A stretch of 64,000 nt of DNA from a virus. The notes beneath the pieces are model-generated. The model ran no database searches and was not told the DNA's origin. It worked only from the letters and a program-made list of their open reading frames with translations. Of the stretch, positions 5,387-45,437 are shown piece after piece. A program made the translations under genes and the position numbers. The stretch covers positions 3,456-67,455 of the IMG/VR virus record IMGVR_UViG_3300037141_000314. One strand, written 5' to 3'. The first letter of the stretch is position 1, and every line of letters begins with the position of its first letter.

Positions 5387-6136
5387 TCATGACCTCACCA
5401 GACGAATTGACCGCCCAACCGCAAAACCGGGAATTTGCCGGCCTGCAGCGATCGCGGTTTTGATTGCGGTCTTGTCTTCGGACCAAGGCGCCGGCTTCGG
5501 CTCGCGCACGAACTCGCGGGCCAGCGGACCGGCCACCGAGGTATCGGGCACCACGCTCGGCGGATTGGGGCGCCGCGCGAGCGTGCTGGTCTCGCCATCG
5601 ATTTTGTCGAGGTTTGATGCCTCGAGGACCGCGAGAACATAATCCTCGAGGCGCTCCAGCTGGCGTTCGTCCCGCTGGACCCGTTTGGCCAGCCGATCGC
5701 GCTCCGCCTTGTCGGCCGCCAGGCGGTGCTCGAGGCCGGCTATCGCCGCGGCGGTGGCGTCGACCTTCTTGCGCGTGCCGGCAAGAGCCGAGATCAGCAT
5801 CGCGCTCAACTCGTCCTTTGCCTCAGGCGTAAGGTCTTCTTCGTCGAGGTCGCCGATGGTCCGGATAATCGCGTCCGTGCCTTCGATGTGCTCGCGCAGC
5901 GTGATCCGCTTCGGCACCACTGTCAGGCCGGAGGCCTCCGGTGTGGAGGCCTCCGGATTCGGATCGCCAGGCTGCCAGTCAATCGGCGGTGCGATCGCGA
6001 TGCCGTTGGTTGGCGCATCCTCGGGCCATCCGAAGTTCGCGTCGTAAGCCGGAGCGAATGAATCGAGTTCCGGCGCCGCGGCGATGATCGAAGCCGCGGT
6101 TTGCGCGGCGGGTTTGCGGGAGGCGGCGCTTTTCAT
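5387..6136 (-). CDS. siphovirus Gp157-like protein
   Basis: Coiled coil ending ...LARRPNPPSV...DKTAIKTAIAAGRQIPGFAV...L. Confidence 0.7.
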   Translation of the reverse strand: MKSAASRKPAAQTAASIIAAAPELDSFAPAYDANFGWPEDAPTNGIAIAPPIDWQPGDPNPEASTPEASGLTVVPKRITLREHIEGTDAIIRTIGDLDEEDLTPEAKDELSAMLISALAGTRKKVDATAAAIAGLEHRLAADKAERDRLAKRVQRDERQLERLEDYVLAVLEASNLDKIDGETSTLARRPNPPSVVPDTSVAGPLAREFVREPKPAPWSEDKTAIKTAIAAGRQIPGFAVGRSIRLVRS

Positions 6137-6726
6137 CGCGCACCGCCTTTGCCGCACTGGATCCAGCAGGAGATGGCCGTCGCGCGGACGTCCTCGCTGG
6201 AGAAGGTGATGCCAAGGCCTTTGCGATTGGCGTAGCTCTGTGCCTCTTGGATAGCGTCGATCGCCTGCATAAAGCAGCCCATCAGCTGGCTGGTAGCTGC
6301 GGGCGTTGGCCCAACGGGAGGCGCTGGCGGCGGAGGAAACGCTATTGGCGGAGGCGGCGGAGGCGGCGGCGTGGGCGGGACCGGGGTATGATAGCCGTTG
6401 CGTGACGTCGCGCTTTGAGCGGCCGATGTTGTAGTTTGCGCAATGGCGGGCGGCGCTGCTGGTACGGCGCTGCCTGCCCCAAATGTCCGGACGCGGATGT
6501 CGTTCGCGCTGGCCTTGACGATCTCAAATTCCTGCATCGCCTGAATGCCAGCCTCGCGGATCCGATCTGCCGCCGATAGCGGCAGGAAGGTGCGCCTGCC
6601 GTCGCAAAGCGTGAACATCACCTGATTCGGTGCGTTCGGTATCGTCGATTCGACGATCTTGCCGGTGGCGTATGTCAGAGAGATGACCTCGGGCACGCCA
6701 ACCTTGAGTTTCAAAAGTTCGGCCAT
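6133..6726 (-). CDS. hypothetical protein with polyproline linker (possible recombination/ssDNA-binding module)
   Basis: Beta-rich N-terminus, Pro-rich linker, helical C-terminus; adjacent to the Gp157-like gene. Confidence 0.55.
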   Translation of the reverse strand: MAELLKLKVGVPEVISLTYATGKIVESTIPNAPNQVMFTLCDGRRTFLPLSAADRIREAGIQAMQEFEIVKASANDIRVRTFGAGSAVPAAPPAIAQTTTSAAQSATSRNGYHTPVPPTPPPPPPPPIAFPPPPAPPVGPTPAATSQLMGCFMQAIDAIQEAQSYANRKGLGITFSSEDVRATAISCWIQCGKGGAR

Positions 6727-12071: not shown

Positions 12072-15000
12072 TTAGATGGGTTGGTCGATCAATGCGCCCG
12101 TCGGCGTGGTCACGCCCGCCGAGCTGGTGCGGAAGTCTACGTGGCACTGAGTGTCAGCGGGTGAAGCTGCGCTGGCGACTGCAAAGGCTATCTTGTAGCT
12201 GGGGTCGAAAATAGTGGAATAGCCGCCGGTACCGCCGACAGGATCTTCCTGCGTGATGAACTGCCATGGCGTTTCGACGCCAGAAGGGGTAGTCGAGTAG
12301 TTAATCGGAGGCGCAACGTTGACATATTTGTTGCCATTGGCGTCGGTAAGGCAATTCGCGGCTGTGAGGATCAGCAGATTGACGGCCTGCGACGCATCGG
12401 GCGTCGCTGTGCCAGCGACAACGGGCACGAGGTAGGAGGAGGCGGGCGCGAACGCGCTGCTCGTAAGCGCCGGCACGAAGACCTCCTGCCACGGCGCAAA
12501 TCGCACGGGCGAGATATTGCCCTTCGCGTCCTGGGTAACTACCTGCACCAGAAACGACTGCGATCCCGCGCTCGAAAACGGAACCTGCATCACGCCGAGA
12601 ATGGCGGCTCCCGACGGCGCGATGCCGTTATTGGTAAACGCCGCGCACGGGATCGAAAGCGACGGCGCCGATTCGAGGATCGAGAAGACGCTCGTCGAGT
12701 CCGGAATCGTGGTCCATGCCTGCGTGATCGTACACGTCGTTGCTGTGTTCGATGCGATATTGCGCTTCTGGCCAGCACCGGTGCCCGCCATAATCCAGAC
12801 GACCTTGCCATACTCCGCGTTGACGACCAGGCCGCCGGGCGCGAACTGATTCACGAAGGCCGTGTCGCCAATCGTGGTGGCCGACGCAATATTCGCCACT
12901 GCACGCATCACGTAGGCGTCGCCGGGATTGCCAGACGTCGACTGCGTGACCGTCATATTGCCCGACGTGTCGTTCGCCGTGACGTTGTAACTCGCGGGCT
13001 GCGCATAACAGAGCCCTGCGAAGGTCTGTGGGCCGACGCCGCCTATGGGGATCGGCGTGGCCGAACCGTATGCGGATAGAATGCGGCCTGCCCACTGGTT
13101 GACCGTGGGTGATGATGGAAACGAGAGAGTATGGGTCGCGACGGCAGATGCGCCATCGCCCCAGATGCCCCCGTGCCGGATCGGCGTCACGAGAAGCATC
13201 ACGTTCGTGTCGACTACATCAGGGCGCCCCGGGCCGTCTGTCGGCCAGATGATTTCCGCGCCGATCGTGATGGAGGAAGCGACCGGATTATGCGCGAACG
13301 AAGGCGCCGGATCCACCAGCCACATGTTCAGCGAGTGCGGGCCAAAATAAACTTCGTAATTGACAGCGTTCGAATCCCAGACAATATTGGAAACCGTAAT
13401 GGTGGATCCGCCTGACGCCACGACCGCCTTCACATTCGCCGATGGCTGCGACTTCGCGCCCGCGGCATCGATGCCGACGAAGGAAACGAGCCACGTGCCG
13501 GCCGCGATCGCGCCGCCCGAGCCGACCGTGGCCTGCAGCGGCACGCGCGGCGCCGAGGTCAGCGCCGACGGAACGTTGACGACAGGAACGGACGCGACGG
13601 TGATCTGGCCGTTGGTCGTGTAGAGCCCGATCGTTTCGAGACCCGGGTAAAGCGCGTCGTTCGTGGGCCACGCGCTGTAGCCGGGTTTCAACGGCCAGGG
13701 CGGCCTGTTCGGCGCGGCCGATAGCGGATTCTTTTGATAGGGCGCCGGATCCTGCCCGTAGAGGTCGGTGTGCCACTGATCGAAGTGCCAGCGGAATGCA
13801 AGGTCCCAATGCTCGCCGTCAGTGTTCGGCGTGGCGGAAAGCAGGCGCGCGAGGACCATCTCGAGCGAAGCCTGCGCGTAGTTGATGCCGCAAATAAAGC
13901 CCACGCGGCTCGCGAGATGCGCGGCCTTGACCGTGGTCTTAAACGACGGCAATTCCGTGCCGCGGGCGTCGAAGCGCGAATTGCCGTAGAGCGCTTTCGC
14001 AAGCTCGACGTTCGAAACGCGCGTGCCCTGGTCGAAATTGTCGATACCCAGCACGGCGAAAGACGCGGCTATTTCCTGATTGCCTGAGGTCGCATAACCG
14101 TCCGGATCGATCGTCGTGATCGTGTCCTGCACGAACTGGTTCGCTCCGTCCTGAAACGGAAACGAAATCGTGTTCGGCGTGTCGTTCAGCGTGCGACCGC
14201 CTAGTTTAAACGTGCTCTTTTCTATCGACGCCGGCACGGTCGCGGATCCGCCGTCGAACAAGTACGCCAGATAGCCTGGCGTCGTCAGCGATGGGATTAG
14301 CGTGATGCTGGTCGCCGGCATCGATGCCACGGCTGTCGAGTAATTCGAGCCGGGGATCGGCGCGCCCTGCTGGTCGGCCAGTGTCTGCTCGATGAAGCAC
14401 TGCAGCAGCCCGTTGGCCGGATTGCGCGCCAAAATAAGGCCCGCGCAGTTGCGAATCGCGAGTACAGCCTTCGCCAAAGTTTGCCGCTGGCCCGTGACCA
14501 GAGCCAGCGAGCAGCGGAAGCGCGCGTGCGTGGCCGCGTTGTTATTGATGTCGGTATAGCCGATCTGAACCGCGCAGATTTGGGCCGCGGCGTACCAACT
14601 GGCGGCGTCGATATCGAGGACCGTGAACGGCCCCCAGCAGGCCAGCAGATCCATCAGCGCCCAAACCGGATTGGCCGCGACAGCGCCGGTCGAAGCTTCG
14701 GTGAAGCCGACATCCCTATCGTTATCGGGGATGTAGAAAATCGAGCCGCCAGCGCCCGACCCGGCGGCTATTGTGCCAATCAGCGTCACCGTTCCCGGAG
14801 GTCCGGTCGTCCAGTTGTACAGTCCATACGAGCCGTTCGGGATCAGGCTGTTGCCCCGGATGTTGATCGTGTAGGGCGGGTTGCCGGCGATATCAGCGTT
14901 CGCTATTCCGGCGGGCAGCGTGATCGTCGTGCCATTCGCCGCGCCAGTCGACACCGCAGTCGCGATCGGCATCGCGTGCAAGCATTGCGGGAACTGCACG

Positions 15001-16409
15001 AGGACTCGGACGGCCGGAATTGTTCCCGATCCTGCTAGTTCGCTCGGGATTGTGACGATGATCCAACACATTGAGCCATGCGGATCGCCCTGCCCATTGA
15101 TCACCGCCAGCTGGGTAACGATGCCCTTCCTTCCACCCGATGAAGTGCTGCCGACGGGCAAACACACCCACGTGAAACTCTGCAGCGGATCGTTATTGAA
15201 TGGCACTTCAACGCCATTGACGAGAACCTTCAGAACGGTAGCCGGGCCGTTGGGCGCCACACAAACAATGCATTCAGCAATCAGGTCGTTCGCTCCGCTA
15301 AAAGGCTCAAGCACGGTGGCGTCGACCCATTGCGTACCGTAGCCCTGGCTGTAAAACCCGTTGCCGATTGGCGAATTCGGCGCATTGAAACCGTATTGAG
15401 TGCCTGCGCCGGGATTAACATACTGATTGCCCGACCAGCCCTGGGGAGCAACCCAGGTGTCCCCAGTGAAGTGGCCGGTAGCGCGGTTGCCTGTATCGTT
15501 CGCGATATCGCCGTCCTGCCCGCATGGTTTGCCGCCAGAGCCGTACGTCGTGGTGGCCGCGTAGTTGCCGAGGCGCGCCATGCAGCCCTGCGTGCGCGTG
15601 GCGCGTCCGGATCCGCAGGAGCGCGAATAGTCGCACATCAGGTAGTAGCCCGAGGCATCCGTAAGAAATGAACCGTCCGGGTTGTCCAGATTAGGAGTCC
15701 CGACATTGCCGACGCCGCCTATACTAATGAGATCTGGCGAGTACCCACAGCCGAAAGACAGCGAGGTCGGATTGGTCAGGCCATCCAACCGCGCAACAGC
15801 CGCTGCCGCGGCAGCAACCGCCCGCGTGGCGCCCGTCGCGCCGGGGAATATATTCCCGCAGCGATTCTGCCGCGCGAAGTTCGGCACGGTCAGTCGCGTC
15901 ATCGACTGGCGCGCCTGCCCGGTGACCTTGATGATGCCGGCGCCGAAATCGACGTTCGGCTTATCGAGGATGAACGTCCAGACGTACGCGTTAGTTGAAT
16001 ACGCGCCCGTCGGCGCGTCCCAAAGCACAAACGTGACGGTCAACGTGCCGCCGCGCCAGCCGAACGCGTTGGCGTGCGTGGTCCAGATGGTAAAATCGCC
16101 GTCCGCGATCACGAGCGAGATCGAACCCGGGATGTCATAGCCCTGCGGGGACTGCGCCTGTATCTGCTCGATTGGGTTGCCCTGAAGGCGCGCTTCGTAG
16201 ACGTTGCCGTTGTACGTCTGCGTCTTGCCGCCGAGCGCGGGGGTCGTCGTCAGATATGTGACATCGCTGCCCGAATCCACCAGCAGGGTCGCGGGATTGA
16301 TCGCCGCGAGCGAGCATAGGATTAAAGGTTTGGGCGTGACGTTGAGTTGAACAAGGCCTGTTTCTTTGCCTTCTTCAATCGTGTAGGGGATTGTGATGAG
16401 GGACGGCAT
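12072..16409 (-). CDS. tail tip / host-specificity (gpJ-like) protein
   Basis: 1445 aa; NPVWALMDLL...IDAASW..AAQIC motif; position after the tape measure and distal tail genes. Confidence 0.75.
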   Translation of the reverse strand: MPSLITIPYTIEEGKETGLVQLNVTPKPLILCSLAAINPATLLVDSGSDVTYLTTTPALGGKTQTYNGNVYEARLQGNPIEQIQAQSPQGYDIPGSISLVIADGDFTIWTTHANAFGWRGGTLTVTFVLWDAPTGAYSTNAYVWTFILDKPNVDFGAGIIKVTGQARQSMTRLTVPNFARQNRCGNIFPGATGATRAVAAAAAAVARLDGLTNPTSLSFGCGYSPDLISIGGVGNVGTPNLDNPDGSFLTDASGYYLMCDYSRSCGSGRATRTQGCMARLGNYAATTTYGSGGKPCGQDGDIANDTGNRATGHFTGDTWVAPQGWSGNQYVNPGAGTQYGFNAPNSPIGNGFYSQGYGTQWVDATVLEPFSGANDLIAECIVCVAPNGPATVLKVLVNGVEVPFNNDPLQSFTWVCLPVGSTSSGGRKGIVTQLAVINGQGDPHGSMCWIIVTIPSELAGSGTIPAVRVLVQFPQCLHAMPIATAVSTGAANGTTITLPAGIANADIAGNPPYTINIRGNSLIPNGSYGLYNWTTGPPGTVTLIGTIAAGSGAGGSIFYIPDNDRDVGFTEASTGAVAANPVWALMDLLACWGPFTVLDIDAASWYAAAQICAVQIGYTDINNNAATHARFRCSLALVTGQRQTLAKAVLAIRNCAGLILARNPANGLLQCFIEQTLADQQGAPIPGSNYSTAVASMPATSITLIPSLTTPGYLAYLFDGGSATVPASIEKSTFKLGGRTLNDTPNTISFPFQDGANQFVQDTITTIDPDGYATSGNQEIAASFAVLGIDNFDQGTRVSNVELAKALYGNSRFDARGTELPSFKTTVKAAHLASRVGFICGINYAQASLEMVLARLLSATPNTDGEHWDLAFRWHFDQWHTDLYGQDPAPYQKNPLSAAPNRPPWPLKPGYSAWPTNDALYPGLETIGLYTTNGQITVASVPVVNVPSALTSAPRVPLQATVGSGGAIAAGTWLVSFVGIDAAGAKSQPSANVKAVVASGGSTITVSNIVWDSNAVNYEVYFGPHSLNMWLVDPAPSFAHNPVASSITIGAEIIWPTDGPGRPDVVDTNVMLLVTPIRHGGIWGDGASAVATHTLSFPSSPTVNQWAGRILSAYGSATPIPIGGVGPQTFAGLCYAQPASYNVTANDTSGNMTVTQSTSGNPGDAYVMRAVANIASATTIGDTAFVNQFAPGGLVVNAEYGKVVWIMAGTGAGQKRNIASNTATTCTITQAWTTIPDSTSVFSILESAPSLSIPCAAFTNNGIAPSGAAILGVMQVPFSSAGSQSFLVQVVTQDAKGNISPVRFAPWQEVFVPALTSSAFAPASSYLVPVVAGTATPDASQAVNLLILTAANCLTDANGNKYVNVAPPINYSTTPSGVETPWQFITQEDPVGGTGGYSTIFDPSYKIAFAVASAASPADTQCHVDFRTSSAGVTTPTGALIDQPI

Positions 16410-16423
16410 GCGAACGTTGATCT

Positions 16424-16597
16424 ATGAGAGAGGTGCTTGACCACAGCCAGATAAGCCTTATCTGGCGAACGATCCTGTCGGTCGGGAAAGATCCGCGCGA
16501 TCCTTCGGTGTGGGCTGAATATGAAGAAGGCTATAGGCGGATGCAGAAGGTGCTGCATTTCAGCGAGTGCCAGCCCGCGAGTTCGGTGCCGCAATGA
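16424..16597 (+). CDS. hypothetical protein (57 aa, not in ORF track), first gene of an antisense mini-operon
   Basis: MREVLDHSQISLIWRTILSVGKDPRDPSVWAEYEEGYRRMQK...; TGA overlaps the next ATG. Confidence 0.45.
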   Translation: MREVLDHSQISLIWRTILSVGKDPRDPSVWAEYEEGYRRMQKVLHFSECQPASSVPQ

Positions 16598-16890
16598 TGA
16601 ACCGCCGCGATTTTCTCGCGCTGGCGGGCGCGGCGGCGATAGCGCCCGCCGTGGCGAAGGAAATGAGCATCGTCGACTGCGTGGCGGATATGTGCTCGAA
16701 CGCCGGACTCGTCATCGACAAGGCGAGCTTCGCAAAAGCTAACGCGATTTGCCTGCAGACTGTTCGGTTTCATCCGAGAGGCTTTTCTACCGTGTGGCCT
16801 CCCATCCCGTTTGACATCGTGACAACAGCCACCGAAGCGGACGCGCTGGCAATGGGCTATTTAAACTTCGTCCTCGGAGCGCCGCAATGA
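16597..16890 (+). CDS. twin-arginine-signal small protein 1
   Basis: N-terminus MNRRDFLALAGAAAIAPAVA. Confidence 0.65.
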   Translation: MNRRDFLALAGAAAIAPAVAKEMSIVDCVADMCSNAGLVIDKASFAKANAICLQTVRFHPRGFSTVWPPIPFDIVTTATEADALAMGYLNFVLGAPQ

Positions 16891-17114
16891 ACCGCCGCGA
16901 TTTTCTCGCGCTGGCGGCGATAGCGCCCGCGCTGCCCATCAAGACGCCAAACGATGTGGTCTCGATTCTTCGCGACATGCTGCTTAACGCGGGAGATACA
17001 ATCGACGAAGCGTCTTTTGCGGCGGCATCCGAAGTATGCGATCAGGCCGTGGCCTTCCCTCCTCATGATGCGGAAGCGGAGCAGTGGGCGATGATCTGTT
17101 CGGGGTGCCGCTAG
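16887..17114 (+). CDS. twin-arginine-signal small protein 2 (paralogue)
   Basis: N-terminus MNRRDFLALAAIAPALP; first 30 nt identical to the previous gene. Confidence 0.65.
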   Translation: MNRRDFLALAAIAPALPIKTPNDVVSILRDMLLNAGDTIDEASFAAASEVCDQAVAFPPHDAEAEQWAMICSGCR

Positions 17115-18088
17115 TTCGTCGCCTCGAGCATAATCTTCAAGCTCGAATCGTTCACCCCGCGATACGTAACAACCAAATCGTCCACCGCCCAGTGCGTATT
17201 GAGATACACGCAAAAGAGCGGCGCGATGATGAGGTGCGCCGCCGCCGTCGTGCCGTTATACGCGCGCGTCGCCGTCAGTGTCGCGCCACCCCACACCGCC
17301 GTCACGTGGAACTGCTCCGCATCGATCTCGAACGCCTGGCCAACGGCCAGCGCGGGATCCGTCGCGAACGGGATCGCGGTCACGCTCGAATTGATCGCGG
17401 CCGATAATACCGATCCGGACGCTTCATCCTTAAAAAGAAAGCTATATGCGCGGCCCCAGTTGGCAATGAAGTGCGCGACCAGCGTAACGAGGTCCGCGTC
17501 GCTCACGAGCTGCATGTCGAATTCCCAGGACATCAGGCCGTCTTTGGGATAGCCGCTCAGGCCGCCGCCGAATTCCGCGAGCGTGTAAATCGGCCCCGCT
17601 TCGACCTTCTGTGCGACGGTCTGGAACCGCTTCTTCTGGACATACGGCAAGATGCCGATCGTGCCGTTGGCCAGCGTGGGGAACGCCAGGCCGGGCGTGC
17701 CGGGCGAAAGGCTCTGCGTGATCGACTGCGTGAGGCGCATCGGACCGGCGTATTGCGTCGTCTTCGATTCGGTCGCGGCCCATTCGTCCGCGTCCATGCC
17801 GAAATTAAAGAACGTAGCGAGGGAGCCGCCGAACGGCAGGCTGATTTCGAGGTTCTGCTCGAAGCGGCCCGCGGCGCCCGTGAACGCGGCCTTGACCGTG
17901 TTCTTCTGCGCCTGCGTCATCTGCGCGTACGGAATCGCTATCTTGACCAGACCGCCCGGCTGCCGGATCCAGCGCTGCTGCGCGCCGTTCTGCCACTCGC
18001 CGATGCCGGTTAGGAAGCTGTAGGTCAGCTCGAACGGGTAGTTCGCGGCGGACGCGCCATGGATGACGGGAAGGGGAGTCGATGACAT
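17111..18088 (-). CDS. distal/minor tail protein
   Basis: Lies between tape measure and tail tip; G.EQR-like GAQQRW motif. Confidence 0.6.
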   Translation of the reverse strand: MSSTPLPVIHGASAANYPFELTYSFLTGIGEWQNGAQQRWIRQPGGLVKIAIPYAQMTQAQKNTVKAAFTGAAGRFEQNLEISLPFGGSLATFFNFGMDADEWAATESKTTQYAGPMRLTQSITQSLSPGTPGLAFPTLANGTIGILPYVQKKRFQTVAQKVEAGPIYTLAEFGGGLSGYPKDGLMSWEFDMQLVSDADLVTLVAHFIANWGRAYSFLFKDEASGSVLSAAINSSVTAIPFATDPALAVGQAFEIDAEQFHVTAVWGGATLTATRAYNGTTAAAHLIIAPLFCVYLNTHWAVDDLVVTYRGVNDSSLKIMLEATN

Positions 18089-18091
18089 GGC

Positions 18092-21000
18092 TTAACCGTT
18101 CGCAGCCCGCTGAACTTCCGTCGCGAGCGCGCCGTGCATGTTCTGCAAATTCTTCGCCGCCGCGTTTCCGACAGCGACGTGAGCTTTATCGATCGCTTCC
18201 GCGAAAGTTTGCGTGTCTATCGCCTGAATAGCACCGGCGGCGTAGTTGTGGTTTACGATGGTCGCGGCGGGCGCCGCGGTCGTCGGATTGAACTGGCTGG
18301 TCTGGCCGCCCGGCACGTTGTAATACGTCGGCGGCGGACCGAACAGCCCGTGCGTCTGTTCCCAGACGAAGCCCTGGCGTACGGTCGGCACCGCGGAGAA
18401 ATCGGACGTGCGGATATTTCCGCGCGCGTCGAAGTCCGTGAAGTTGCCGTTTGACGACTGCGTGACATTGAGAGCCTGCGGCGCGATGTACTGGTTGGCC
18501 GAGAGTTCCTGATTGATCTGATTGGCGCGCTGCGTGGGCCCGTTGCCGAACAGGCTGCCGATCAGCGGCAGAGCGACGGCCGCGATGGATCCGATGATGG
18601 GGATCGCGGACAGCAGCGGCGTGGCCGCGCCGAGCAGCTTCGCGACGTTTCCGACAACCGCGCCCGCGATGCCGGCAGCGCTGCCGGCCGCCGTCAGATC
18701 GCCGCGCGGGCCGCCCTGCGAGAGGCCCGAGATAATGCCCATCGTGCCCGCGCCGATCGTAGCCGCGAGGCCAACGCCGGATGCGATCTGCTGGCCCGTC
18801 GTCGGGGTATAGCCGGGAAGGGACACCGACATGCCGTCCAGTGGATTGGCGAGACCGCCGTAAGAGACCGGCAGCGGCGCGACCAGGCCGGGAGTCGGCG
18901 CCGTGGAAGTCGGTGCCGAGACGAAGCCGCCGCCGCCGGTTCCTTCTCCTCCCAGCAGATCGACCGTTACCCCCGGCGTGCCGCTGCCGCCGCCCAAGAT
19001 ATTACTGAGCGCGTCGCCACGCACCACGGAGCTAACGCCGCCGCCCGCGCCGCTGATCAGCTTCGCGATGCTCGCGAGCGCGGTGCCGGTCTCGACGACA
19101 GCGCCACCGCCGCCGCCCGAGGGCGAAAGCGCCTGCGCCCGCAGAGTCGAAAGCGTGGCGAGGATGCCGGTACCAAGGGGTGCGGCCCCGCTGATCTGGT
19201 CGATGATTCCGGGTGGCATGCCATACCCGGCGCCAGACGCAGTGTAAGGCGACAGCGCCGGCAAGGCCGCAACCGGCTGGGCAAGCGATCCCGCGAGGCT
19301 ATTGGGCGCCGGCGCCGAACCGACAGAACTGTCGGGCGAGTTGCCGGTGATGCCGGAATACAGTTGACCGATGGATTTTGTCAGCACGCCCGTCGCCTGC
19401 GTGTTGTCGTCGAGCGCCTGCGCGATCGCGAGCGCGGCCGGGCTCGGGGCGTTGGCCCCGGCGGGGAGCACACTGACAGGCGGGCCGCCGCCCTCCGCAA
19501 AAGCGAGGATGCCTGACGCCAGAAGCCGCTTCGTGTCGGCTGCGGTCAGGATCGTGCCCGGCGTGGTGGGCACGAACAATTCCGGGCCCTCCTCGCCCAC
19601 AAGCGATGGCACGCCGACAGGCGGACCGCCGCCCCGCGCGTACGCGAGGATGCCGGGCAGCTTCGCCGGTGCCGTGGCTGCTGCCGGCGAGGCGACGGGC
19701 GCCGAGCCTCCCGTCATCGCGCGAAAGATCTGCGCGAGCCAGTCCGCCGTCTTGCCCGTGTTGGCGGCAGTAGCGGCTTGTGTGGCGTCGGAGGCGCCAG
19801 GGACGGCCCTGTTCGCAGGGTCAAATATCGTGTCTTTCGTGAACGGCCGGAAGCTCGCCGGCACGGCGCCCGCGAGAGTCTCGCCCGCGGTTTTCAAAAT
19901 CGGCGCCGTCGCGTTCGCGAATAGCTTCGCGCCCTGGCCGAGCGCTTCTTTACGCAGCAGCAGCGTGAGCGCGTGGCCCGCGCCCAGCTGGCGGTTGATC
20001 AGAGCGTCGAAGATGCTCTCGGAATCGCGCTTGTACTTTTCGAGATCCTTTTCGCGGATCTCCGCGATCTTGAGCTCGATATCGATACGCTCATCGCCGA
20101 GTTCGCGTTCGTAGCCGCGCTGATTGGCGATTTCCTGCGCGCGCAGCTGCGCCAGCTGGGTATCAACTTCCTTTTCACTGCCCGGGTTCGCCTTGAGAAT
20201 GCCCTGCTGCTCGGCGCGCTCGGCCTCGATATCGCGCTGCTTTTCGTCGCGATCGATCTGCGCGATCTGGCGGCGCAGGTCTATCTGTTTGCGTAAAGTA
20301 TCGAGATCGTTGCCCTTGCCGTCCTGCGCTGCGATCAGCGCGGAGCGGCGCTGCAGCGAGGCTTTATTGTCCTCGATGTCGGCCTTGGTTGATGCTTCTG
20401 TAACGGTGCGCAGATTGCGCGCGTGGCTGGCCTCGTCCTCGAATCGTTTCTTGCCCAGTGCAATAAGTTCGAGCTCGCGCTGTTTCTGTGCATCGTAAAG
20501 AGCCAGCGCCGCGGCGCCGGTGGCTTTGATCTGCGCCTCAGTAATGCCGCGGTTGTCGGCTTCGAGTTGCTTCGTGTCGGGCTTAATGGCCTGCCGCTCG
20601 TCACGCTGCTGACGCAGTTCGACGACCTGACGCGCCGCGTCTTCGAATTGCTGCCGCTGCGACGCCAGCCGTTCCTGATACGCAGCTTCGATGCCCGCTT
20701 CGTCCTGTCCGGAGCTTTTACCGCGCGCCAGATCGATCTCTGCGCCGCCCGCACCCTGCGCCTTATCGAGCGCCTTTTGCTGGTCGATAACGGTACCGGC
20801 TACCGCGCGATCATTCTGCGCCCGGGAAATGGCGAGGCCCTGATTGTACTTGTCCTTCTCGATCGCCGTGTCCTGATCGATCTGCGCCAGGTTGGCTGGC
20901 GTCAGCTTCTCGTTAGGCTTTGCCCCGGGATGTTCCTTCCGGTAGAGTGCATCTTCCTCGCGCAGTTTAGCGATCAGCGCATCGTGCTTTGCATTGATCG

Positions 21001-22657
21001 CGTCGAGCCCGGTGAGCTCGCCTTCCTGCAGGCGTGCGCGTTCGCTACGAAGCGCGATCGCTTCTTCGTCTCCGCGGTTGGCTTCCTTCTTGCCATCCGC
21101 GACGGCCTTGATGGCCGCTTCGAGGCGCGTGACTTCGGCGGTTTGTTTGTTGTACTCCGCGGTTTCGGTGGCGCGCGTCTTTTTGTCGATGCTATCGCCG
21201 CGCAGATCGGGGCGCAGTTTATCTGCGGCGGCTTTGGCCGTCTTAAGCTGCTCGTCGAGTGATTCTTTAGTTTTATCGTCGCTCGCGCGGAAGGCAGCGC
21301 CGCTGGTTTTCAGGGCGTCCTCACCTAACTTCCGCATCTGGTCGAGAGAGCCCTGAATATCTCTGTCGATCAGCGGCTTGACGTTGCGCGCAATACCCTG
21401 CGCTCTGGCCGCGACATTTCCGGGCTCATTGCTATTGCCGTTGAGCAGCCCCTGCATGTCCGCGTCGTCGCGGGCTTCATGGCCATCGGGAATAAGCTTG
21501 GCCAGAACCCGTATTGTGATCGGAGCGATTTCCGTCGCCAGACTTTTTTTGAATAGCGTCCAGCTTTCGTCCAGTTTTTTAACGGCGCGATCCGCGTCCA
21601 GTAATTCCTTAGAGCCGGCGGCATCCTCGCCAACATGAAGCGATGCGGCGATGCGCTGCAGCTCCGCGTAATCGGCGATGAGCGGCTGGATTGCCTTCCC
21701 GCCGCGGCCGAGTACTTCGTTCGCGAGCGCGAATCGTGTCGCCTGATCTGGAATACGTGAAAGCTTATCCAGCAATTCAAGAACAATTGGTCCGGTCTCT
21801 TTAAATTCGCCCTGCAGGCCGACCGTCTCGATGCCCAGCTTATGAAGCGCATCGGACGCCTTTTTACCTGTAGTCGCGGGATTTTCGAGCGCCTCGCCTA
21901 AAAGCCGTCCCGATTGCTCCAGCGCGTTAATACTGATGCCGGTAAGTCGCGCTTGCGATTGGAGCTTTTCGGCCTGTAAGAGCGTAACGCCGATTCGATC
22001 CGCGAAGTTGGAGGTCTCACGCTCAGCGGCAGCGAACTCGGCGACGAGATCGTAGCTCATCTTAGCGGCGGCCACGCCGATTGCCAGGATGCCAACAGTG
22101 GCGAGGCCGGCCGGCGTTACAATTCCTCCCAGACCTCCGGACAGCGCCCCGGCGCCACGCGTCAGGCTTGCGAGTTGCCCTGTGACGATTCCCGACCCAC
22201 TCGCCAGCTGCAGCAGCCCGGACGCGCCGCGATTCGCTGCCGCTTCGCCGTCTTTCGCTGCCTTCGCCGCCTTCGCTGCCGCGTCCGCCTGTTCTTTCAG
22301 CGCATCGGTGATCTTTTTGACATCGCGCGCGTGGTTCTCGTTGTACGCGAGTTCCATCATGCGGCCGAGCTTCTGCGTCTCGTCTGCCGCCTTCGATGCT
22401 TCTTTCCCGAGGTTCTGTGCTTCCTTCGCTATCTTTGCGACGCCTTCGAAGCCGCCGCTCGTTGTAGACGCGATGCTTTTCAGCGCCTGCGCGAGCGAAT
22501 CGCCAGCGGCGATGCTGCCGCGCAGCGCGAACTCGAAAACCTTCAGCTCGCCGGCCGAGGCCTTGGTGTTCGTCGCGAGGCGCTGAATCAGCCCGTCGAC
22601 CGAAGCGAGGGCTTCGGCGCCGGTTTGTTTCAAATCGAATCTGAGCTCGTAAGCCAT
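18092..22657 (-). CDS. tape measure protein
   Basis: 1521 aa, Ala/Gly-rich and helical; YARGG..VG...LVGEEGPELFVP motif; follows the tail chaperones. Confidence 0.9.
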   Translation of the reverse strand: MAYELRFDLKQTGAEALASVDGLIQRLATNTKASAGELKVFEFALRGSIAAGDSLAQALKSIASTTSGGFEGVAKIAKEAQNLGKEASKAADETQKLGRMMELAYNENHARDVKKITDALKEQADAAAKAAKAAKDGEAAANRGASGLLQLASGSGIVTGQLASLTRGAGALSGGLGGIVTPAGLATVGILAIGVAAAKMSYDLVAEFAAAERETSNFADRIGVTLLQAEKLQSQARLTGISINALEQSGRLLGEALENPATTGKKASDALHKLGIETVGLQGEFKETGPIVLELLDKLSRIPDQATRFALANEVLGRGGKAIQPLIADYAELQRIAASLHVGEDAAGSKELLDADRAVKKLDESWTLFKKSLATEIAPITIRVLAKLIPDGHEARDDADMQGLLNGNSNEPGNVAARAQGIARNVKPLIDRDIQGSLDQMRKLGEDALKTSGAAFRASDDKTKESLDEQLKTAKAAADKLRPDLRGDSIDKKTRATETAEYNKQTAEVTRLEAAIKAVADGKKEANRGDEEAIALRSERARLQEGELTGLDAINAKHDALIAKLREEDALYRKEHPGAKPNEKLTPANLAQIDQDTAIEKDKYNQGLAISRAQNDRAVAGTVIDQQKALDKAQGAGGAEIDLARGKSSGQDEAGIEAAYQERLASQRQQFEDAARQVVELRQQRDERQAIKPDTKQLEADNRGITEAQIKATGAAALALYDAQKQRELELIALGKKRFEDEASHARNLRTVTEASTKADIEDNKASLQRRSALIAAQDGKGNDLDTLRKQIDLRRQIAQIDRDEKQRDIEAERAEQQGILKANPGSEKEVDTQLAQLRAQEIANQRGYERELGDERIDIELKIAEIREKDLEKYKRDSESIFDALINRQLGAGHALTLLLRKEALGQGAKLFANATAPILKTAGETLAGAVPASFRPFTKDTIFDPANRAVPGASDATQAATAANTGKTADWLAQIFRAMTGGSAPVASPAAATAPAKLPGILAYARGGGPPVGVPSLVGEEGPELFVPTTPGTILTAADTKRLLASGILAFAEGGGPPVSVLPAGANAPSPAALAIAQALDDNTQATGVLTKSIGQLYSGITGNSPDSSVGSAPAPNSLAGSLAQPVAALPALSPYTASGAGYGMPPGIIDQISGAAPLGTGILATLSTLRAQALSPSGGGGGAVVETGTALASIAKLISGAGGGVSSVVRGDALSNILGGGSGTPGVTVDLLGGEGTGGGGFVSAPTSTAPTPGLVAPLPVSYGGLANPLDGMSVSLPGYTPTTGQQIASGVGLAATIGAGTMGIISGLSQGGPRGDLTAAGSAAGIAGAVVGNVAKLLGAATPLLSAIPIIGSIAAVALPLIGSLFGNGPTQRANQINQELSANQYIAPQALNVTQSSNGNFTDFDARGNIRTSDFSAVPTVRQGFVWEQTHGLFGPPPTYYNVPGGQTSQFNPTTAAPAATIVNHNYAAGAIQAIDTQTFAEAIDKAHVAVGNAAAKNLQNMHGALATEVQRAANG

Positions 22658-25341: not shown

Positions 25342-25875
25342 TCAACTGATATAGGCTTCGAACTGCGCGGTAAAGCGCACCGGCACGATCCAGTTCTCGC
25401 CGTCCAACACGCATTTCTGGCGCGCGGCGGAAATCTCCAGACCATACAGTTTGCCCGAGCCCGCGAAATTCGCCTGCAGGCTGAGGTTATTCATGGTCGC
25501 GATCACGGCGCCCTCGCCCGCGTCCGCATACGGCTCGAAATTGCTCACCGCTTCGCCGGGCACGCTGAGATACAGATCCAGAATGATCGAAACGTTTCCA
25601 GACCACGTGGCGTTAAAAAGCTTCTGCGTTCCGCCCGCCTTGAACGGCGCAGCCGTCCCGCCATACACGCAGAGCAGATTCGGCATCGCCGTGCCGGACA
25701 GCTCGGTATCGCTGTAACCCACGTTCGCCTGGAAGACGTTCAGAGATCCCGCCGCGAAATCGAACGCGACAATCGGCACGCTGAACGCGGCGCACGACGT
25801 CGCCAGATTCGTGTTGAGGCTCGCTGAAAGCTGCGCCATCACGGCGGCGCGGATCAGCGCAATCGGTGAGCTCAC
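25342..25875 (-). CDS. putative tail terminator / completion protein
   Basis: Size and position; IR.A.MA.L N-terminus and beta-strand C-terminus. Confidence 0.55.
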   Translation of the reverse strand: MSSPIALIRAAVMAQLSASLNTNLATSCAAFSVPIVAFDFAAGSLNVFQANVGYSDTELSGTAMPNLLCVYGGTAAPFKAGGTQKLFNATWSGNVSIILDLYLSVPGEAVSNFEPYADAGEGAVIATMNNLSLQANFAGSGKLYGLEISAARQKCVLDGENWIVPVRFTAQFEAYIS

Positions 25876-26438
25876 GCTGCGCGGCCTTGCATGCGCATTT
25901 CACTCCGCGTGCCCATGTCGTTTTCCATTTCGTGTCGATCCTCGTCGGTAGCGTCGAAAAAATGCCGGCGCGGCATCGCGAACGTTGCGGCGCCGTTTTT
26001 CTTCGCTTTGCCCTTGCCCTTGCCCGTACCCTGGCGGCTGCGGATGGTCGCGCCTTCGTTGTGGACCTCGGCCAGCAGCGCGGCGCGTTCGTCGTAGAAC
26101 CCGAGACTGCCGTTGAGCGCCTGCGTGTTCGAATCGCCGTCATCGGTCAGCGATCCGGAGGTGGCCACAATCGCCTGCAGCATGTTTGGCGCATTGCGCC
26201 CGCGCAGATCGACGCCGCTTCGGCCGTACGCTGACTTCTTCTTCGCATAGCCCGGCGAATACGCCGCAAACGATGCGCCGTCCGCGTCGACGCCGGCCGC
26301 GGTCCGCTTCAGGATGCGGGTGCGCTGCCGCTGCAGCGCATAGAGCAAATCGCCCTCGGTTGGCAGCGCCGCGGTTACGAGCGCGTGCGCGTGGGTAACG
26401 GGATCGGCGCCCGCGGTCGCGGTGAAGGTTACGGTCAT
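25872..26438 (-). CDS. virion morphogenesis / neck protein
   Basis: G.DADG..FAAYSPGYAKKK ... A..HNEG ... MPRRHFF motif. Confidence 0.7.
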   Translation of the reverse strand: MTVTFTATAGADPVTHAHALVTAALPTEGDLLYALQRQRTRILKRTAAGVDADGASFAAYSPGYAKKKSAYGRSGVDLRGRNAPNMLQAIVATSGSLTDDGDSNTQALNGSLGFYDERAALLAEVHNEGATIRSRQGTGKGKGKAKKNGAATFAMPRRHFFDATDEDRHEMENDMGTRSEMRMQGRAA

Positions 26439-26734
26439 TCTGGCTTTACGTCTTTCGTGCTTTCTGGCTTTCGTGCTTTCTTCACCCGCGGCTTGGGAAA
26501 GGCGCGCGCCAGCGTGGTGCGCTTTATTTCCACGATGTTGACCTTCGGGACGGTTAGCCACATCCGCACATTTGTTGCCGCGTCCTGACACTCCGTTCCG
26601 ATGACGATAGAATCCGGCGTCTCCTTAATCAGAAAGCCGATCTCGTGCAACTCCGCGAGGCCGCCAAGCTCAGTGATCGCGTGTTCGTTCATGCTGTGTA
26701 TTGCGTCGCGCCACTTGAGGTAGATTATTGTCAT
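26435..26734 (-). CDS. hypothetical phage protein
   Basis: IYLKWRDA...IGFLIKE...IP..NI pattern. Confidence 0.6.
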   Translation of the reverse strand: MTIIYLKWRDAIHSMNEHAITELGGLAELHEIGFLIKETPDSIVIGTECQDAATNVRMWLTVPKVNIVEIKRTTLARAFPKPRVKKARKPESTKDVKPE

Positions 26735-29107: not shown

Positions 29108-31957
29108 TTAGTGCGCCCATGGAATACCCCAGGTAACCGCGTCCGAAGCGGTGAAGTTAGCGGCCAGGCCAGTTGTCCGGCTGTATCCGGTAAGCGCAAG
29201 GCCGGTCGTGCTGAGAACTGTCGACATCACAGCAGGGCCGGTACATGTCGCCGTCCCGTTCGACACGGTAGCGCCCGTTGGTGCTGTGACAAAGGAGTTC
29301 CCCGCCGCCGTGATGACGATGGCTGCCCCGCCAGCGATGGCGTTGGTTCCGGTTAGTGCTACCGTGGCAGTCGCGCTGCTTCCGCCACCTCCCGTAATCG
29401 TGAGCGTGCAGGTTTGCGTAGCCGTTCCCGTCGCCGTGATTCCGCTGGTATAGGTGCCTGAACCGACGCCGGCATACGGGGCGGTCGTACAGACAGCCAC
29501 AATGGTCGCCGCGTTGGTCTGATCTGTGGCATCACAGTTGAACATGCCATAAGGAAACGCTGTTCCGAATGTCAGAACAACTGAGCCGGTACCTACAGAA
29601 GTTCCCACCAGCACTGTGCCAGATTGATCCGCGCCCGCAATTGCCGATGCCGTTCCGCCGCCGCCCGCGGCAATCGTTGGCGCGGTGCCCGATGCGACAG
29701 AATGACGCAGTTTTAGGTCGCGGTAGTTGGCGAGCGTGGTACCTTGCGTGGATTGAGTGATTCCGAGAACGCCAGCGGAGTCACGTTGCAGACCGGTATC
29801 GACAGCAGACCCCGAGCCGGTTCCAAACTGAAGCTGCATAGTTGACCCAAGCTGAAGGCCGTTGCCGAAATTGTATGCAAACATATTGTTGCCGCCCGCG
29901 ATGATCGTCAGGGCCGGTAGTTGGACCGTGAACTGGCCCAACTGTATGTATGAGGTGCCGTTTATTTTCAGGTCGATCAGGTACCCACTAAAGCCACTGC
30001 ACGCATTCACCCCCAGTCCTGTGCCCGACGTGTTCCAGCCGGTCGAAGTAGTTGTGCCTGAATTACACTCAATCAGCCCTTGCGGTTTGGTCGTCGTCGC
30101 GGAACCGCCAGAGTACCAGGTCCCGCCGAGGCGAAACGGCGGCGCGGATGCAGCCCCGTTCAACGTCGAGAGCAATTGTACCGGCGTCGTTAAACTCGTT
30201 CCCGGCACATCAGCGATGTCCGTCGATATCGACGGCACGCCCGACGGGCTCGTCGCGAGAAAGCCGCTGTTAGCCGTCGCGATACAGCCCGGCGTCGACG
30301 TCGCGGAGTTGAAAAAGATATCGTTCGCGGTCGTACAGGGAATGGCCAATGCCCCGAGATTGCTCCGTGCGGTCGCTGCCGATGCAACGTCGCTCAGGTT
30401 ATTGGCAGATTGAAGAAAGTATGAGCTGGCCTGGAGCGCCGCGCTACCTAAGCCCAGATTCGTTCGTGCTGTCGCGGCGCTCGCGAGGTCAGATAAATTG
30501 CTCGCCCTCTGCAGACTTGCCGCAATGGCAGCCGCCTGCGCTGCTGCTGCCGCACCCGCCGTATCGCTCGCTGCAATAGCCGCAGCTTGGGCAGCCGAGG
30601 CCGCTCCCGCCGCATCGAATGCGCTGGTGGCCTGAGTGGCCGCAGTGCCGAGACCAAGATTCGTTCGTGCTGTCGCGGCGCTGGCGAGGTCGGACAAGTT
30701 ACTGGCCCTCTGCAGGCTTGCCGCAATGGCAGCCGCCTGCGCTGCTGCTGCCGCACCCGCCGTATCGCTCGCTGCAATAGCCGCAGCCTGTGCAGCCGAG
30801 GCCGCTCCCGCCGCATCGAATGCGCTGGTGGCCTGAGTGGCCGCAGTGCCAAGGCCCAGATTCGTTCGTGCTGTGGCTGCGCTGGCGAGATCGCTGAGGT
30901 TGTTAGCAGACTGGAGAAAGTATGAGCTGGCTTGAAGCGCCGCACTGCCCAGGCCCAGATTCGTTCGCGAGGTGGATGCGCTCGAAACATCGCTCAGATT
31001 GTTGGACGCCAGCAGAAACGTGGGTACGCCTGTCAGTTTCGACCAGGCAAGGCTTGTGATCCATGACGGGTTAGCGTACGATCCGGTTTGGTCCGCGCAA
31101 TTCGTCACAGCCGCGCAATTCAGCGTCTGCCACGATTTATCGCCTCGCCAGTATTGGCTTGTCGTTCCCGCTGTGATGGCGGGTTCGTAGGACGGAACGC
31201 CAGTCAGCTTAGACCACGCCAGCGACGCGAGCCATGAAGGATTGGCATACGTGCCGCCGCTCTGCAGCACGTTGGCCGGCACGATACCCGAGTCGGCGCC
31301 GTTGCCCGCGCCGTCCCCTTCGATTAGATCGGTGGTTGCAGGGATCGTTGCACCGCCGCCCGCGCCTGTTTTCGGCAGCCACGCTCCTGCGGATGCGCTC
31401 CATTCGGGCGTTTGACCATCGATCGCGCCGCTTTTCGAAATTTGTGCGAGCGCGATGATTGTGGCTGGCGTGACAGCAGTGTCACCCTCGACGTATTGCA
31501 CCGTGTACGGGCCGCCTCCCGGAACGGTCCACGTGCGCGTGTAGGTATCGGTACCCCCCATCGGGGCCGGGAGGCGGACTGTATACGTCGCGGTATACGT
31601 CGCGGGCGTTAAGCATGCAGAGAACGTGCCAGCCGACGTCGTAATGCGCGCAGCGCTCTGCGTCGGCCCGGTCGCGGGCGTATAAGCAAGAGTGATATCG
31701 ATAACACTGCCGTTCAGCAGGAGCATGGGAACAGCAGCGCCGATCTGGTAAACCGGGCCCGTGATCGTGGTACATGCAGGCTGCGCGAGCGCGCCCGCGC
31801 AAGCGACAAGCATGAAAGCAATGAGCGCGGCCGAGTTTCTCGCAATGGGCGCAAAGGTCGACGCAAAGGCACTCCCGCTATGGCTGCAGACTCGCCGGAG
31901 CCCTCTGGAGGGTTGGCTTTGCGGTAAACTTTGCGTCTTTGCGAGAAAGTTATGCAC
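29108..31957 (-). CDS. fibre protein with NNLSD..SAATARTNLGLG repeats and a signal-peptide-like segment
   Basis: Classic tail-fibre repeat, also Y.RGD.SWQ; hydrophobic ALIAFMLVACAGALA|Q near the N-terminus. Confidence 0.75.
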   Translation of the reverse strand: MHNFLAKTQSLPQSQPSRGLRRVCSHSGSAFASTFAPIARNSAALIAFMLVACAGALAQPACTTITGPVYQIGAAVPMLLLNGSVIDITLAYTPATGPTQSAARITTSAGTFSACLTPATYTATYTVRLPAPMGGTDTYTRTWTVPGGGPYTVQYVEGDTAVTPATIIALAQISKSGAIDGQTPEWSASAGAWLPKTGAGGGATIPATTDLIEGDGAGNGADSGIVPANVLQSGGTYANPSWLASLAWSKLTGVPSYEPAITAGTTSQYWRGDKSWQTLNCAAVTNCADQTGSYANPSWITSLAWSKLTGVPTFLLASNNLSDVSSASTSRTNLGLGSAALQASSYFLQSANNLSDLASAATARTNLGLGTAATQATSAFDAAGAASAAQAAAIAASDTAGAAAAAQAAAIAASLQRASNLSDLASAATARTNLGLGTAATQATSAFDAAGAASAAQAAAIAASDTAGAAAAAQAAAIAASLQRASNLSDLASAATARTNLGLGSAALQASSYFLQSANNLSDVASAATARSNLGALAIPCTTANDIFFNSATSTPGCIATANSGFLATSPSGVPSISTDIADVPGTSLTTPVQLLSTLNGAASAPPFRLGGTWYSGGSATTTKPQGLIECNSGTTTSTGWNTSGTGLGVNACSGFSGYLIDLKINGTSYIQLGQFTVQLPALTIIAGGNNMFAYNFGNGLQLGSTMQLQFGTGSGSAVDTGLQRDSAGVLGITQSTQGTTLANYRDLKLRHSVASGTAPTIAAGGGGTASAIAGADQSGTVLVGTSVGTGSVVLTFGTAFPYGMFNCDATDQTNAATIVAVCTTAPYAGVGSGTYTSGITATGTATQTCTLTITGGGGSSATATVALTGTNAIAGGAAIVITAAGNSFVTAPTGATVSNGTATCTGPAVMSTVLSTTGLALTGYSRTTGLAANFTASDAVTWGIPWAH
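30457..30880. repeat. 201-bp tandem repeat (67 aa) inside the fibre gene
   Basis: GATTCGTTCGTGCTGT recurs at 30457, 30658 and 30859. Confidence 0.9.
31836..31948. repeat. REP-like palindromic element, in frame in the fibre gene 5' end
   Basis: TTTCTCGCAA ... TTGCGAGAAA terminal inverted repeat. Confidence 0.7.
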
Positions 31958-45144: not shown

Positions 45145-45437
45145 GATTCCCAGTCCGGGATTTCGACGGTCTGTCCAGCTAGCGCGTGGTGGCAATCGCT
45201 CAGGAACTGGATTCTGCCATCACGCACAAACGAGTGGCACCGGGACGCCGGGACGCTGGCGTTGCAAAGTAACGATGGCGCGAACGTCGGCAGATCAAAC
45301 GATCCGTTCCACGTCCAGTTGATATTGCGTGTACCGCCAACGGTAAAGCCGTGACCGTACCCGCATCCCGGGCAGTGGAACATGTAGAGCTTTGATCCAT
45401 CCGGATTTGTCCCGGCCTCGCGTATCTTCGGCTTCAT
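45141..45437 (-). CDS. DUF6527-like Cys/His protein
   Basis: FHCPGC...H...WTWNG...PTFAPS...CHSFVRDG.IQFLSDCHH.LAGQTV. Confidence 0.75.
   Translation of the reverse strand: MKPKIREAGTNPDGSKLYMFHCPGCGYGHGFTVGGTRNINWTWNGSFDLPTFAPSLLCNASVPASRCHSFVRDGRIQFLSDCHHALAGQTVEIPDWES

Follow-up and report, generated by a model that had tools for sequence, protein, structure and literature searches.

The window analyzed here, a stretch of 64,000 nucleotides of viral DNA, comes from a virus record of 67,455 bp that CheckV grades as complete (IMG/VR record IMGVR_UViG_3300037141_000314, positions 3,456 to 67,455). Between its distal-tail (Dit) position gene and its tail-tip/baseplate hub gene, on the opposite strand, lies a cassette of three small genes (positions 16424 to 17114), a real, translationally coupled accessory unit that interrupts, in antisense orientation, the late tail operon of an Acidobacteriota siphovirus. 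Two of its products combine a predicted twin-arginine (Tat)-type signal with a core of about 40 residues that, by profile comparison, is homologous to a highly conserved segment of hubs of the pb3/gpJ type. Judged from sequence comparison, the best reading is a modular accessory cassette of periplasmic hub mimics, which probably serves to exclude superinfecting phages. We hold the anatomy of the cassette as described below with high confidence; the exclusion mechanism, proposed by analogy with known systems, is more tentative, and we put its probability at about 0.38.

The 701-nt gap between the two tail genes is tiled by three plus-strand open reading frames (ORFs), antisense to both flanks. 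ORF1 (57 amino acids [aa]; 16424-16597, +) is the first gene of the cassette and has neither a signal nor a family; its stop overlaps the start of ORF2 in ATGA. ORF2 (97 aa, or 98 aa from an ATG at 16594; 16597 or 16594 to 16890, +) encodes a signal (MNRRDFLALAGAAAIAPAVA), a helix-loop-helix core and a C-terminal tail without known kin. Across a second ATGA stop/start overlap, ORF3 (75 aa; 16887-17114, +) encodes the same signal start as ORF2 (MNRRDFLALAAIAPALP), followed by a helix-loop-helix core. The ATG of ORF1 lies 14 nt from that of the hub gene, and at the far end the stops of ORF3 and of the Dit gene overlap in CTAG. A preliminary description of the window had proposed three coupled antisense ORFs in this position, two of them sharing their first 30 nt; the coupling is confirmed, and the shared DNA extends to an exact 31-nt repeat (16597-16627 and 16887-16917) followed by an exact 18-nt repeat (16632-16649 and 16913-16930). 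Both repeats belong to a junction module, made up of a GCAATGA stop/start overlap and signal-coding DNA, that is present at 16588-16660 (+) and, with a 9-nt deletion relative to the first copy, before ORF3 at 16878-16936 (+). The cores were also said to resemble each other, and they do: ORF2 and ORF3 share 30 of 61 residues (49%; E = 1e-10) and are by this measure paralogues, the core of ORF2 (aa 21 to 60; 16657-16776, +, as calculated from the protein alignment) being the counterpart of that of ORF3.

Coding in the plus frames is supported by codon-position GC, by the conservation of ORF1 and by proportions of nonsynonymous difference (pN) that lie below those of synonymous difference (pS). 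The cassette ORFs have a GC content of 0.67 to 0.72 at third codon positions (GC3) and of 0.43 to 0.49 at second positions (GC2), a pattern that fits coding in these frames, compared to a GC3 of 0.76 to 0.84 in the flanking tail genes; overall, the gap differs modestly in composition from the window (GC of 0.593 versus 0.612). A homologue of ORF1 occupies the same place in the related phage L006 (60% identity, E = 4e-24), with a pN of 0.30 and a pS of 0.73 between the two. Between ORF2 and ORF3, pN is 0.37 and pS is 0.64; in the cores, pS reaches 0.93, at which synonymous sites are saturated, with a pN of 0.43, while the signal-coding DNA is identical. Minus-strand frames over the gap hold only arginine-rich shadow ORFs.

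Database searches placed the cassette in no described family. ORF1 had no match in Pfam, PHROGs, NCBIfam or PADLOC, and its atlas search returned a score of 0.80, which is the chance level; a word-indexed homologue search with ORF2 recovered ORF2 alone, and a search for related loci with the Dit protein found none. The cassette ORFs matched no known exclusion or defense family in Pfam, PHROGs or PADLOC, and PADLOC returned nothing for the cassette proteins save an 11.6-bit chance match for a relative, P0044. Contigs from four other peat metagenome runs show zero differences from the window across the cassette (15800-17800 compared, for presence only), which indicates that this phage genotype is present in more than one peat sample.

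ORF2 and ORF3 both begin MNRRDFLAL, followed by an Ala-rich uncharged stretch. The Tat motif has an S/T-R-R-x-F-L-K-like consensus and lies near the N terminus. In ORF2, the hydrophobic region (h-region) and cleavage site read LALAGAAAIAPAVA and then KE, which is to say an A-x-A followed by Lys; in ORF3, the h-region LALAAIAPA is followed by LPIK, and the cleavage site is less clear. The preliminary description had recognized twin-arginine N termini here, and MNRRDFL does open both proteins, with ORF2 (17.4 bits; cut-off of 16.7) but not ORF3 passing TIGR01409. ORF2 falls narrowly under the cut-off of the Pfam TAT_signal family PF10518 (22.3 bits compared to 22.7), and the signal-tagged ORFs of related phages score 22.4 (the 87-aa ORF of L006) and 16.3 (L009). 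The corresponding motifs of the relatives read NRRNFL, NRRHFL, KRRTFL and NRRSFL. A six-frame scan of the whole window with a regular expression (start codon, RR-x-[FLIVM][LIVMA] and an uncharged h-region) matched ORF2 and ORF3 only, and six of the seven ORFs that carry a signal or a core have the signal. TatC (PF00902) is above its cut-off in two of the three genomes that hold related prophages. We therefore treat the N termini of ORF2 and ORF3 as predicted twin-arginine-type signals.

The hub gene beside the cassette (12072-16409, −) encodes 1445 aa with a gpL-like N-terminal part. The protein itself has no Pfam or PHROG match. It belongs to a 38-member family in which six members match PF13550 and three match PF09931, and an AF2 model of residues 1 to 800 (pLDDT of 81.9) matches T5 pb3 (7zqp_b, E = 5e-15) as well as tip chains of lambda, T1, Chi and GTA; it is on these matches that we assign it to the pb3/gpJ-type baseplate hubs. 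A tblastn search of 50,697 phage records with the hub gave no match, and a search of PDB sequences with the hub profile gave 0 matches; related loci were sought with a 15-member hub subset as the query. The segment that the small proteins resemble comprises hub residues 576 to 619 (NPVWALMDLL...IDAASWYAAAQICAVQI; calculated coordinates, 14553-14684, −), which in the model form two helices (581-591 and 602-613) and then a strand. Few residues are nearly invariant in the family, and five of them lie here (N580, W592, A608, A609 and Y618). The idea that this hairpin lies within PF13550 was discarded, as the Pfam match of the hub P0038 (531-635) begins about 100 residues past its hairpin (396-432).

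Homology between the cores and this segment is supported principally by profile comparison. A profile of ORF2 and ORF3, run exhaustively with HMMER against 1.84 billion representatives, gave six matches, two of which were the query proteins. Two more were small proteins from unlinked sequences, P0042 (117 aa, E = 5.6e-5) and P0044 (98 aa, E = 4.4e-4), which share the layout of a twin-arginine N terminus and an NP...D...AG..D.AS..AA.VC.Q core, with diverged signals. The remaining two, P0041 and P0043, were dropped as repeat inflated, being long repeat proteins of eukaryote-like type (9 and 2 matching stretches). The fifth member of the family, which lacks a signal, is an ORF of 51 aa that the L007/L020 prophage carries in the same gap. 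Aligned with hhalign to the 38-member hub family, the five-member family matches exactly hub residues 576 to 619 (probability of 82.6, E = 9.7e-6), with ORF3 contributing aa 19 to 58 (calculated coordinates, 16941-17060, +); the observed score of 44.2 compares to at most 16.7 in 60 column shuffles and 14.3 for the reversed alignment. Pairwise similarity to distant hubs is also detectable: P0044 matches the hub P0038 in two high-scoring segment pairs on non-adjacent hub segments (E = 4e-6 and 4e-4), P0042 matches the hub P0039 (E = 2e-5), and ORF3 matches P0038 at a BLASTP E of 0.01. The AF2 model of ORF3 has helices at residues 24 to 34 and 41 to 50 (pLDDT of 78 to 89), and the predicted secondary structures of ORF3 and hub agree in a helix-loop-helix followed by a strand. 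Foldseek found nothing at an E of ≤0.001 for the 75-aa model, the EF-hand proteins at the top of its rows (E > 2) being judged generic helix-loop-helix matches, and a PDB sequence search with the small-protein profile gave one chance match (E = 0.23). Neither ORF2 nor ORF3 matches PF13550 or PF09931; one 40-residue segment aligns, without the several-hundred-residue architecture of a hub.

The preliminary description had gone further and likened the cores to a segment of the adjacent tip protein. The tip segment that it quoted exists, at about hub residues 584 to 612, and the relationship to tail-tip hubs as a family stands on the profile alignment above. The tie to the adjacent gene in particular does not: the proposed BLASTP alignment has an E of 12 for ORF2 and is absent for ORF3, and all five members of the small family score best against the most distant hubs, P0038 and P0039, and not against the clade of the neighboring gene. 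The core is therefore hub derived, but not a recent copy of the gene beside it.

Other features of the hub deserve mention in their own right. At hub residues ~180 to 280, in a part of the model that matches lambda gpL (8iyk_L), C184, C259 and C276 are invariant in the 38-member family and C221 is nearly so. The lambda gpL protein holds an Fe-S cluster, and by analogy the hub of the window may carry one too. In L007 (6995-9406, +) and L020 (3995-6406, +), the hub gene stops after 803 aa, and the database hub relatives P0008, P0010, P0011, P0013 and P0014 are of ~800 aa; the long C-terminal half of the hub is thus a separable module.

Signal-tagged ORFs in the same gap were found in two related phages, L006 and L009, and one of them carries another piece of the hub. 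L006, whose hub is 84% identical to that of the window, has the ORF1 homologue and two signal-tagged ORFs (87 and 134 aa). The 134-aa ORF matches hub residues 368 to 453 (BLASTP E = 3e-5, reached in 0 of 100 shuffles; hhalign P = 6e-7). The second half of P0044 resembles yet another hub motif, the third, in the GTGAGQ region (hhalign P = 1.7e-6; BLASTP E = 4e-4 with residues 882 to 919 of P0038). A single signal in P0044 is thus followed by two hub segments that are not adjacent in the hub itself.

What these genes have in common is the junction. The stop of the preceding gene (...CAA TGA), overlapping an ATG, and ~65 nt of signal-coding DNA form a block that is shared by five signal-tagged genes in three phages (the window, L006 and L009), with no similarity on either side of it, and ATGA coupling is kept at five of five junctions. 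Over 64 nt (16597-16660), the window is 96.9% identical in DNA to the signal-coding part of the 87-aa ORF of L006, compared to 83% identity in the flanking tail genes, and the mature parts are too different to align. Within and between phages, the junction thus stays nearly unchanged while what lies behind it is swapped, in some cases for other hub fragments; recombination at the shared block would be expected to leave such a pattern. A pattern search of IMG/VR for the junction returned the L006 contig only, and P0042 and P0044, whose own contigs are 1424 and 873 nt long, were not found in viral contigs.

Several other explanations for the repeated module were set aside. A CRISPR array would not consist of two copies 290 nt apart, and the Rfam match to CRISPR-DR20 (16588-16642, −; 24.8 bits compared to 42, E = 0.019) was taken as chance. 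The 67-kb record has no RVT_1, which discounts a diversity-generating retroelement. Inversion of the Gin type is discounted for the cassette by repeats that are direct, with no convincing inverted repeat bracketing it and no serine-recombinase target sites found. Silent donor cassettes for hub variation fit poorly with nil DNA identity to the hub gene and with ORFs that carry signals, and a RiPP-like leader/core system with the lack of a maturase gene nearby among the scanned ORFs.

The genes on either side of the cassette are direct neighbors in some related phages, which is the pattern expected of a moron. Nine distinct arrangements with a visible Dit-hub boundary were compared. Three have no cassette, the two genes either overlapping by 4 nt (L008/L011/L014; L022) or abutting (L015/L017). 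Signal-tagged ORFs are present in three (the window, L006 and L009, with gaps of 701, 796 and 555 nt) and a signal-less core ORF in one (L007/L020, 166 nt). L021 has a 283-nt gap without a convincing ORF, and L018, a more distant relative, carries an unrelated 167-aa antisense ORF (2986-3489, −) in a gap of 644 nt, so that the Dit-hub junction seems to be a hot spot at which accessory genes of various kinds insert. The family is rare: it occurs in 1 of 401 sampled Acidobacteriota genomes, the one already known, and no additional member was found among 5.8 billion clustered proteins.

We propose the following mechanism, for which HK97 gp15, phi80 taiEcA and the periplasmic effector of the HXS system serve as precedents. 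The junction would act as a recombination anchor. Expression of the cassette proteins would come from the prophage and run counter to late transcription, and Tat would export them into the periplasm. There, their cores could mimic hub surfaces and bind the contacts of the hub in an incoming tail tip, with the tape measure, a neighboring hub subunit or a host envelope factor as candidates, and DNA entry by superinfecting relatives would be blocked. A bolder version of this reading, which we regard as speculative and rather unlikely, is that Acidobacteriota phages run a recombining hub-fragment display cassette, in which the stop/start and Tat-signal junction captures and swaps conserved hub pieces, including those of foreign lineages, and the products act as periplasmic competitive mimics that jam tail-tip contacts at DNA entry.

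Each of the precedents shares some features with the cassette. HK97 gp15 is a moron inside the tail operon, and its exclusion depends on tail features of the incoming phage (PMC3594210). Like the cassette, it represents small envelope-targeted proteins inserted between tail genes; unlike it, gp15 is a YebO-like inner-membrane protein for which the text consulted reports no likeness to a tail protein (PMC3594210), whereas the cassette has a Tat-type signal, a hub-derived core, tandem genes, an antisense orientation and no promoter or terminator by consensus scan. In phi80, taiEcA, which belongs to a "noncontiguous operon", runs antisense within the late operon; the lysogen produces it, and its level falls once late genes are on (PMC11364771). 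Prophages use Tab to target the tails of rivals (PMC10884400). These, too, are prophage accessory genes directed against rivals' tails, with taiEcA likewise running against an interrupted late operon. They differ in acting on assembly in the cytoplasm and in protecting the carrier by anti-Tab or Ati, while the cassette has export signals and no evident counter-gene; the comparison is by description. The HXS system offers a periplasmic effector that arrests DNA entry (PMC13128918).

Measured against the larger families that it touches, the cassette is again only partly similar. Its ~40-residue core, and the two other hub segments in related small proteins, tie it to pb3/gpJ hubs (the context of PF13550), but proteins of 51 to 134 aa with one or two fragments and no PF13550 match are not hub proteins. 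With Tat substrates, ORF2 and ORF3 share the N-R-R-D-F-L motif, the Ala-rich uncharged h-region and, more clearly in ORF2, an A-x-A followed by Lys; on the other hand, no large folded cargo or cofactor binding is evident in them. CdiA/Rhs toxin tips with orphan modules are variable-end cassettes marked by a conserved junction. Like these, the cassette has a short conserved coding junction before interchangeable parts, in tandem, which homologous recombination could swap; in contrast, its junction is the N-terminal signal peptide of separate small genes, and no toxin/immunity pair is evident. The cassette therefore seems best placed among tail-operon accessory and exclusion genes, with the Tat-tagged hub fragments and the junction as its apparently new elements. 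In the literature searched, which included few subscription papers and no supplements, neither Tat-tagged fragments of a tail hub encoded by a phage nor a junction cassette like this one is described, and no paper on phage-encoded Tat substrates of the ORF2/ORF3 kind was found.

A number of observations weigh against periplasmic hub mimicry and exclusion. Regarding export, ORF3 is under both curated cut-offs (15.5 bits for TIGR01409 and 14.4 for PF10518), P0042 scores 10.7 with PF10518, and neither P0044 nor the 134-aa ORF of L006 has a Pfam TAT_signal match at an E of ≤1; because the L007/L020 member lacks a signal, a periplasmic location is not universal in the family. Regarding mimicry, similarity of ORF2 and ORF3 to the adjacent hub is at chance level in pairwise comparison (18 of 100 and 10 of 100 shuffles reach the observed scores), and a mimic that targets close relatives would be expected to resemble the neighboring hub more than distant ones. 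No hub or tape-measure similarity was found for ORF1, the tail of ORF2, the 87-aa ORF of L006 or the signal-tagged ORF of L009, nor for the 83-aa ORF of L009 and the tail of P0042. The preliminary description's reading, in which pieces of a tip protein were captured and tagged for export, gains further backing from the 134-aa ORF of L006 and from P0044, but finds none in ORF1, the ORF2 tail and the two related signal-tagged ORFs. What was captured corresponds to the most conserved motifs of the hub, and detection bias may account for this. A complex prediction of mature ORF3 with the C terminus of the tape measure protein, with a score of 0.01, gave no verdict either way. Regarding expression, a scan of the cassette for sigma-70-type promoter consensus sites found 0, a consensus that acidobacterial promoters may not fit, and a terminator scan found one weak site inside ORF2, no more than in shuffles; as ORF1 starts 14 nt from the hub start, any promoter would have to lie inside the hub coding region. 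Finally, lysogeny of the phage itself is suggested by its relative L020, and its record contains no recognizable integrase.

The alternative hypothesis that survives best is that the genes form a lysogenic-conversion cassette whose periplasmic role is unrelated to phages (e.g., in envelope physiology or competition), the hub hairpin being a small stable fold that was reused. A signal and an insertion pattern such as these would suit any exported moron product, several of the cassette ORFs are without tail similarity, and morons have diverse host-benefit roles (PMC3594210). Reuse of a convenient fold does not easily explain, however, why three different hub segments recur behind the same type of signal in unlinked sequences, and the absence of the family from 400 of the 401 sampled Acidobacteriota genomes means that it has no cellular counterpart. 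We consider this explanation unlikely, though worth keeping in view.

Exported mimics could also serve the phage's own lytic cycle by occupying a receptor or envelope factor of the dying cell, thereby sparing progeny from adsorbing to debris or infected cells, a progeny-sparing logic that T5 Llp is said to follow. Such a role would fit genes that lie within the tail module and whose products are predicted to mimic the tip in the periplasm. An antisense cassette would collide with late transcription, however, and the hub hairpin lies outside the receptor-binding part, in a model that matches the hub domains of T5 pb3, making a lytic function improbable.

A further hypothesis keeps the action in the cytoplasm, where dominant-negative hub pieces could poison the tip assembly of invaders in the manner of Tab and Tai or regulate assembly of the phage's own tip. 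The N terminus would then go unused for export or, as Tat substrates fold in the cytoplasm before export, would drag a bound partner out by Tat hitchhiking. The L007/L020 member without a signal is consistent with cytoplasmic action, as is the finding that Tab and Tai prophage proteins block tail assembly, with Tai antisense in a late operon (PMC10884400, PMC11364771). In contrast, no part of the cassette is better conserved than the signal (97% DNA identity; present in 6 of 7 ORFs), which argues that the signal is used, and PADLOC shows no relation to known defense proteins, Tab and Tai having been compared by description only. Taken with its hitchhiking variant, we think this a poor prospect. 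Least probable is nonfunctional debris of illegitimate recombination that stayed open by chance, for although the family is tiny and rare, the gap contents vary among close relatives and GC3 is below that of neighboring genes, pN is lower than pS in both comparisons, five of five junctions are ATGA coupled, the gap is fully tiled, and the same signal-plus-core architecture occurs, with diverged signals, in the unlinked P0042 and P0044.

PHROG and Pfam scans identified the surroundings of the cassette as a siphovirus-like late module on the minus strand, with genes for the terminase small (40395-40979, −) and large (39021-40376, −) subunits, portal (36711-38255, −), major head protein (34951-35862, −) and tail completion protein (25872-26591, −), followed by a 1521-aa tape measure protein (18092-22657, −; phrog_12506, E = 4.9e-8). 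Directly after the tape measure gene comes that of the Dit position protein (17111-18088, −), a DUF2460-like protein of 325 aa that matches PF09343 at an E of 1.7e-6 without reaching the cut-off (28.1 bits compared to 30.4). Within the head-tail module, an HNH/endonuclease VII-like gene of low GC3 (33572-34285, −; 0.59) has the appearance of a mobile insertion. Upstream of the tail genes, a 949-aa protein (29108-31957, −) with PHROG matches to major tail protein and tail fiber families may be a decorated tail tube or fiber protein.

Relatives of the phage were found in genome bins of Bryobacteraceae, Bryobacterales and Acidobacteriaceae. One of them, L020, is therefore a prophage, for ordinary cellular genes are found on its 108-kb contig as well. 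A small serine recombinase was the only recombinase found in the record of the window's phage; tyrosine integrase, rve transposase and reverse transcriptase were not found. The serine recombinase (2953-3597, −; Resolvase E = 2.1e-37, plus a helix-turn-helix) has integration, inversion or resolution as candidate roles, and a Mu Gam-like gene is located at 5387-6157. The phage also encodes a sigma-70 region-2 protein (58829-59890, −), a NusG-like protein (47657-48190, −) and a LuxR-type regulator (46697-47332, −), which suggests phage-run control of transcription and may have a bearing on regulation of the antisense cassette. A class-3 lipase domain protein (44410-45195, −; E = 2.7e-24) is encoded among the early/accessory genes.

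Even without a function, the statistical link that ties signal-tagged small ORFs to segments of the hub offers a clean example of the capture of domain fragments. If the exclusion reading is true, the cassette would represent a new route of superinfection exclusion, in which fragments of the most conserved hub surfaces of rivals are exported, rather than receptors being masked or a protein residing in the inner membrane, and it would point to the hub elements whose contacts siphoviruses of Gram-negative-type cells need for DNA entry. The logic of a conserved signal-coding junction with swappable cargo would lend itself to fast evolution of inhibitors, and a display cassette of this kind would make protein-fragment mimicry a modular and evolvable form of exclusion with a broad target range. 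For the phages of Acidobacteriota, a phylum abundant in soil, the cassette provides a rare functional lead.

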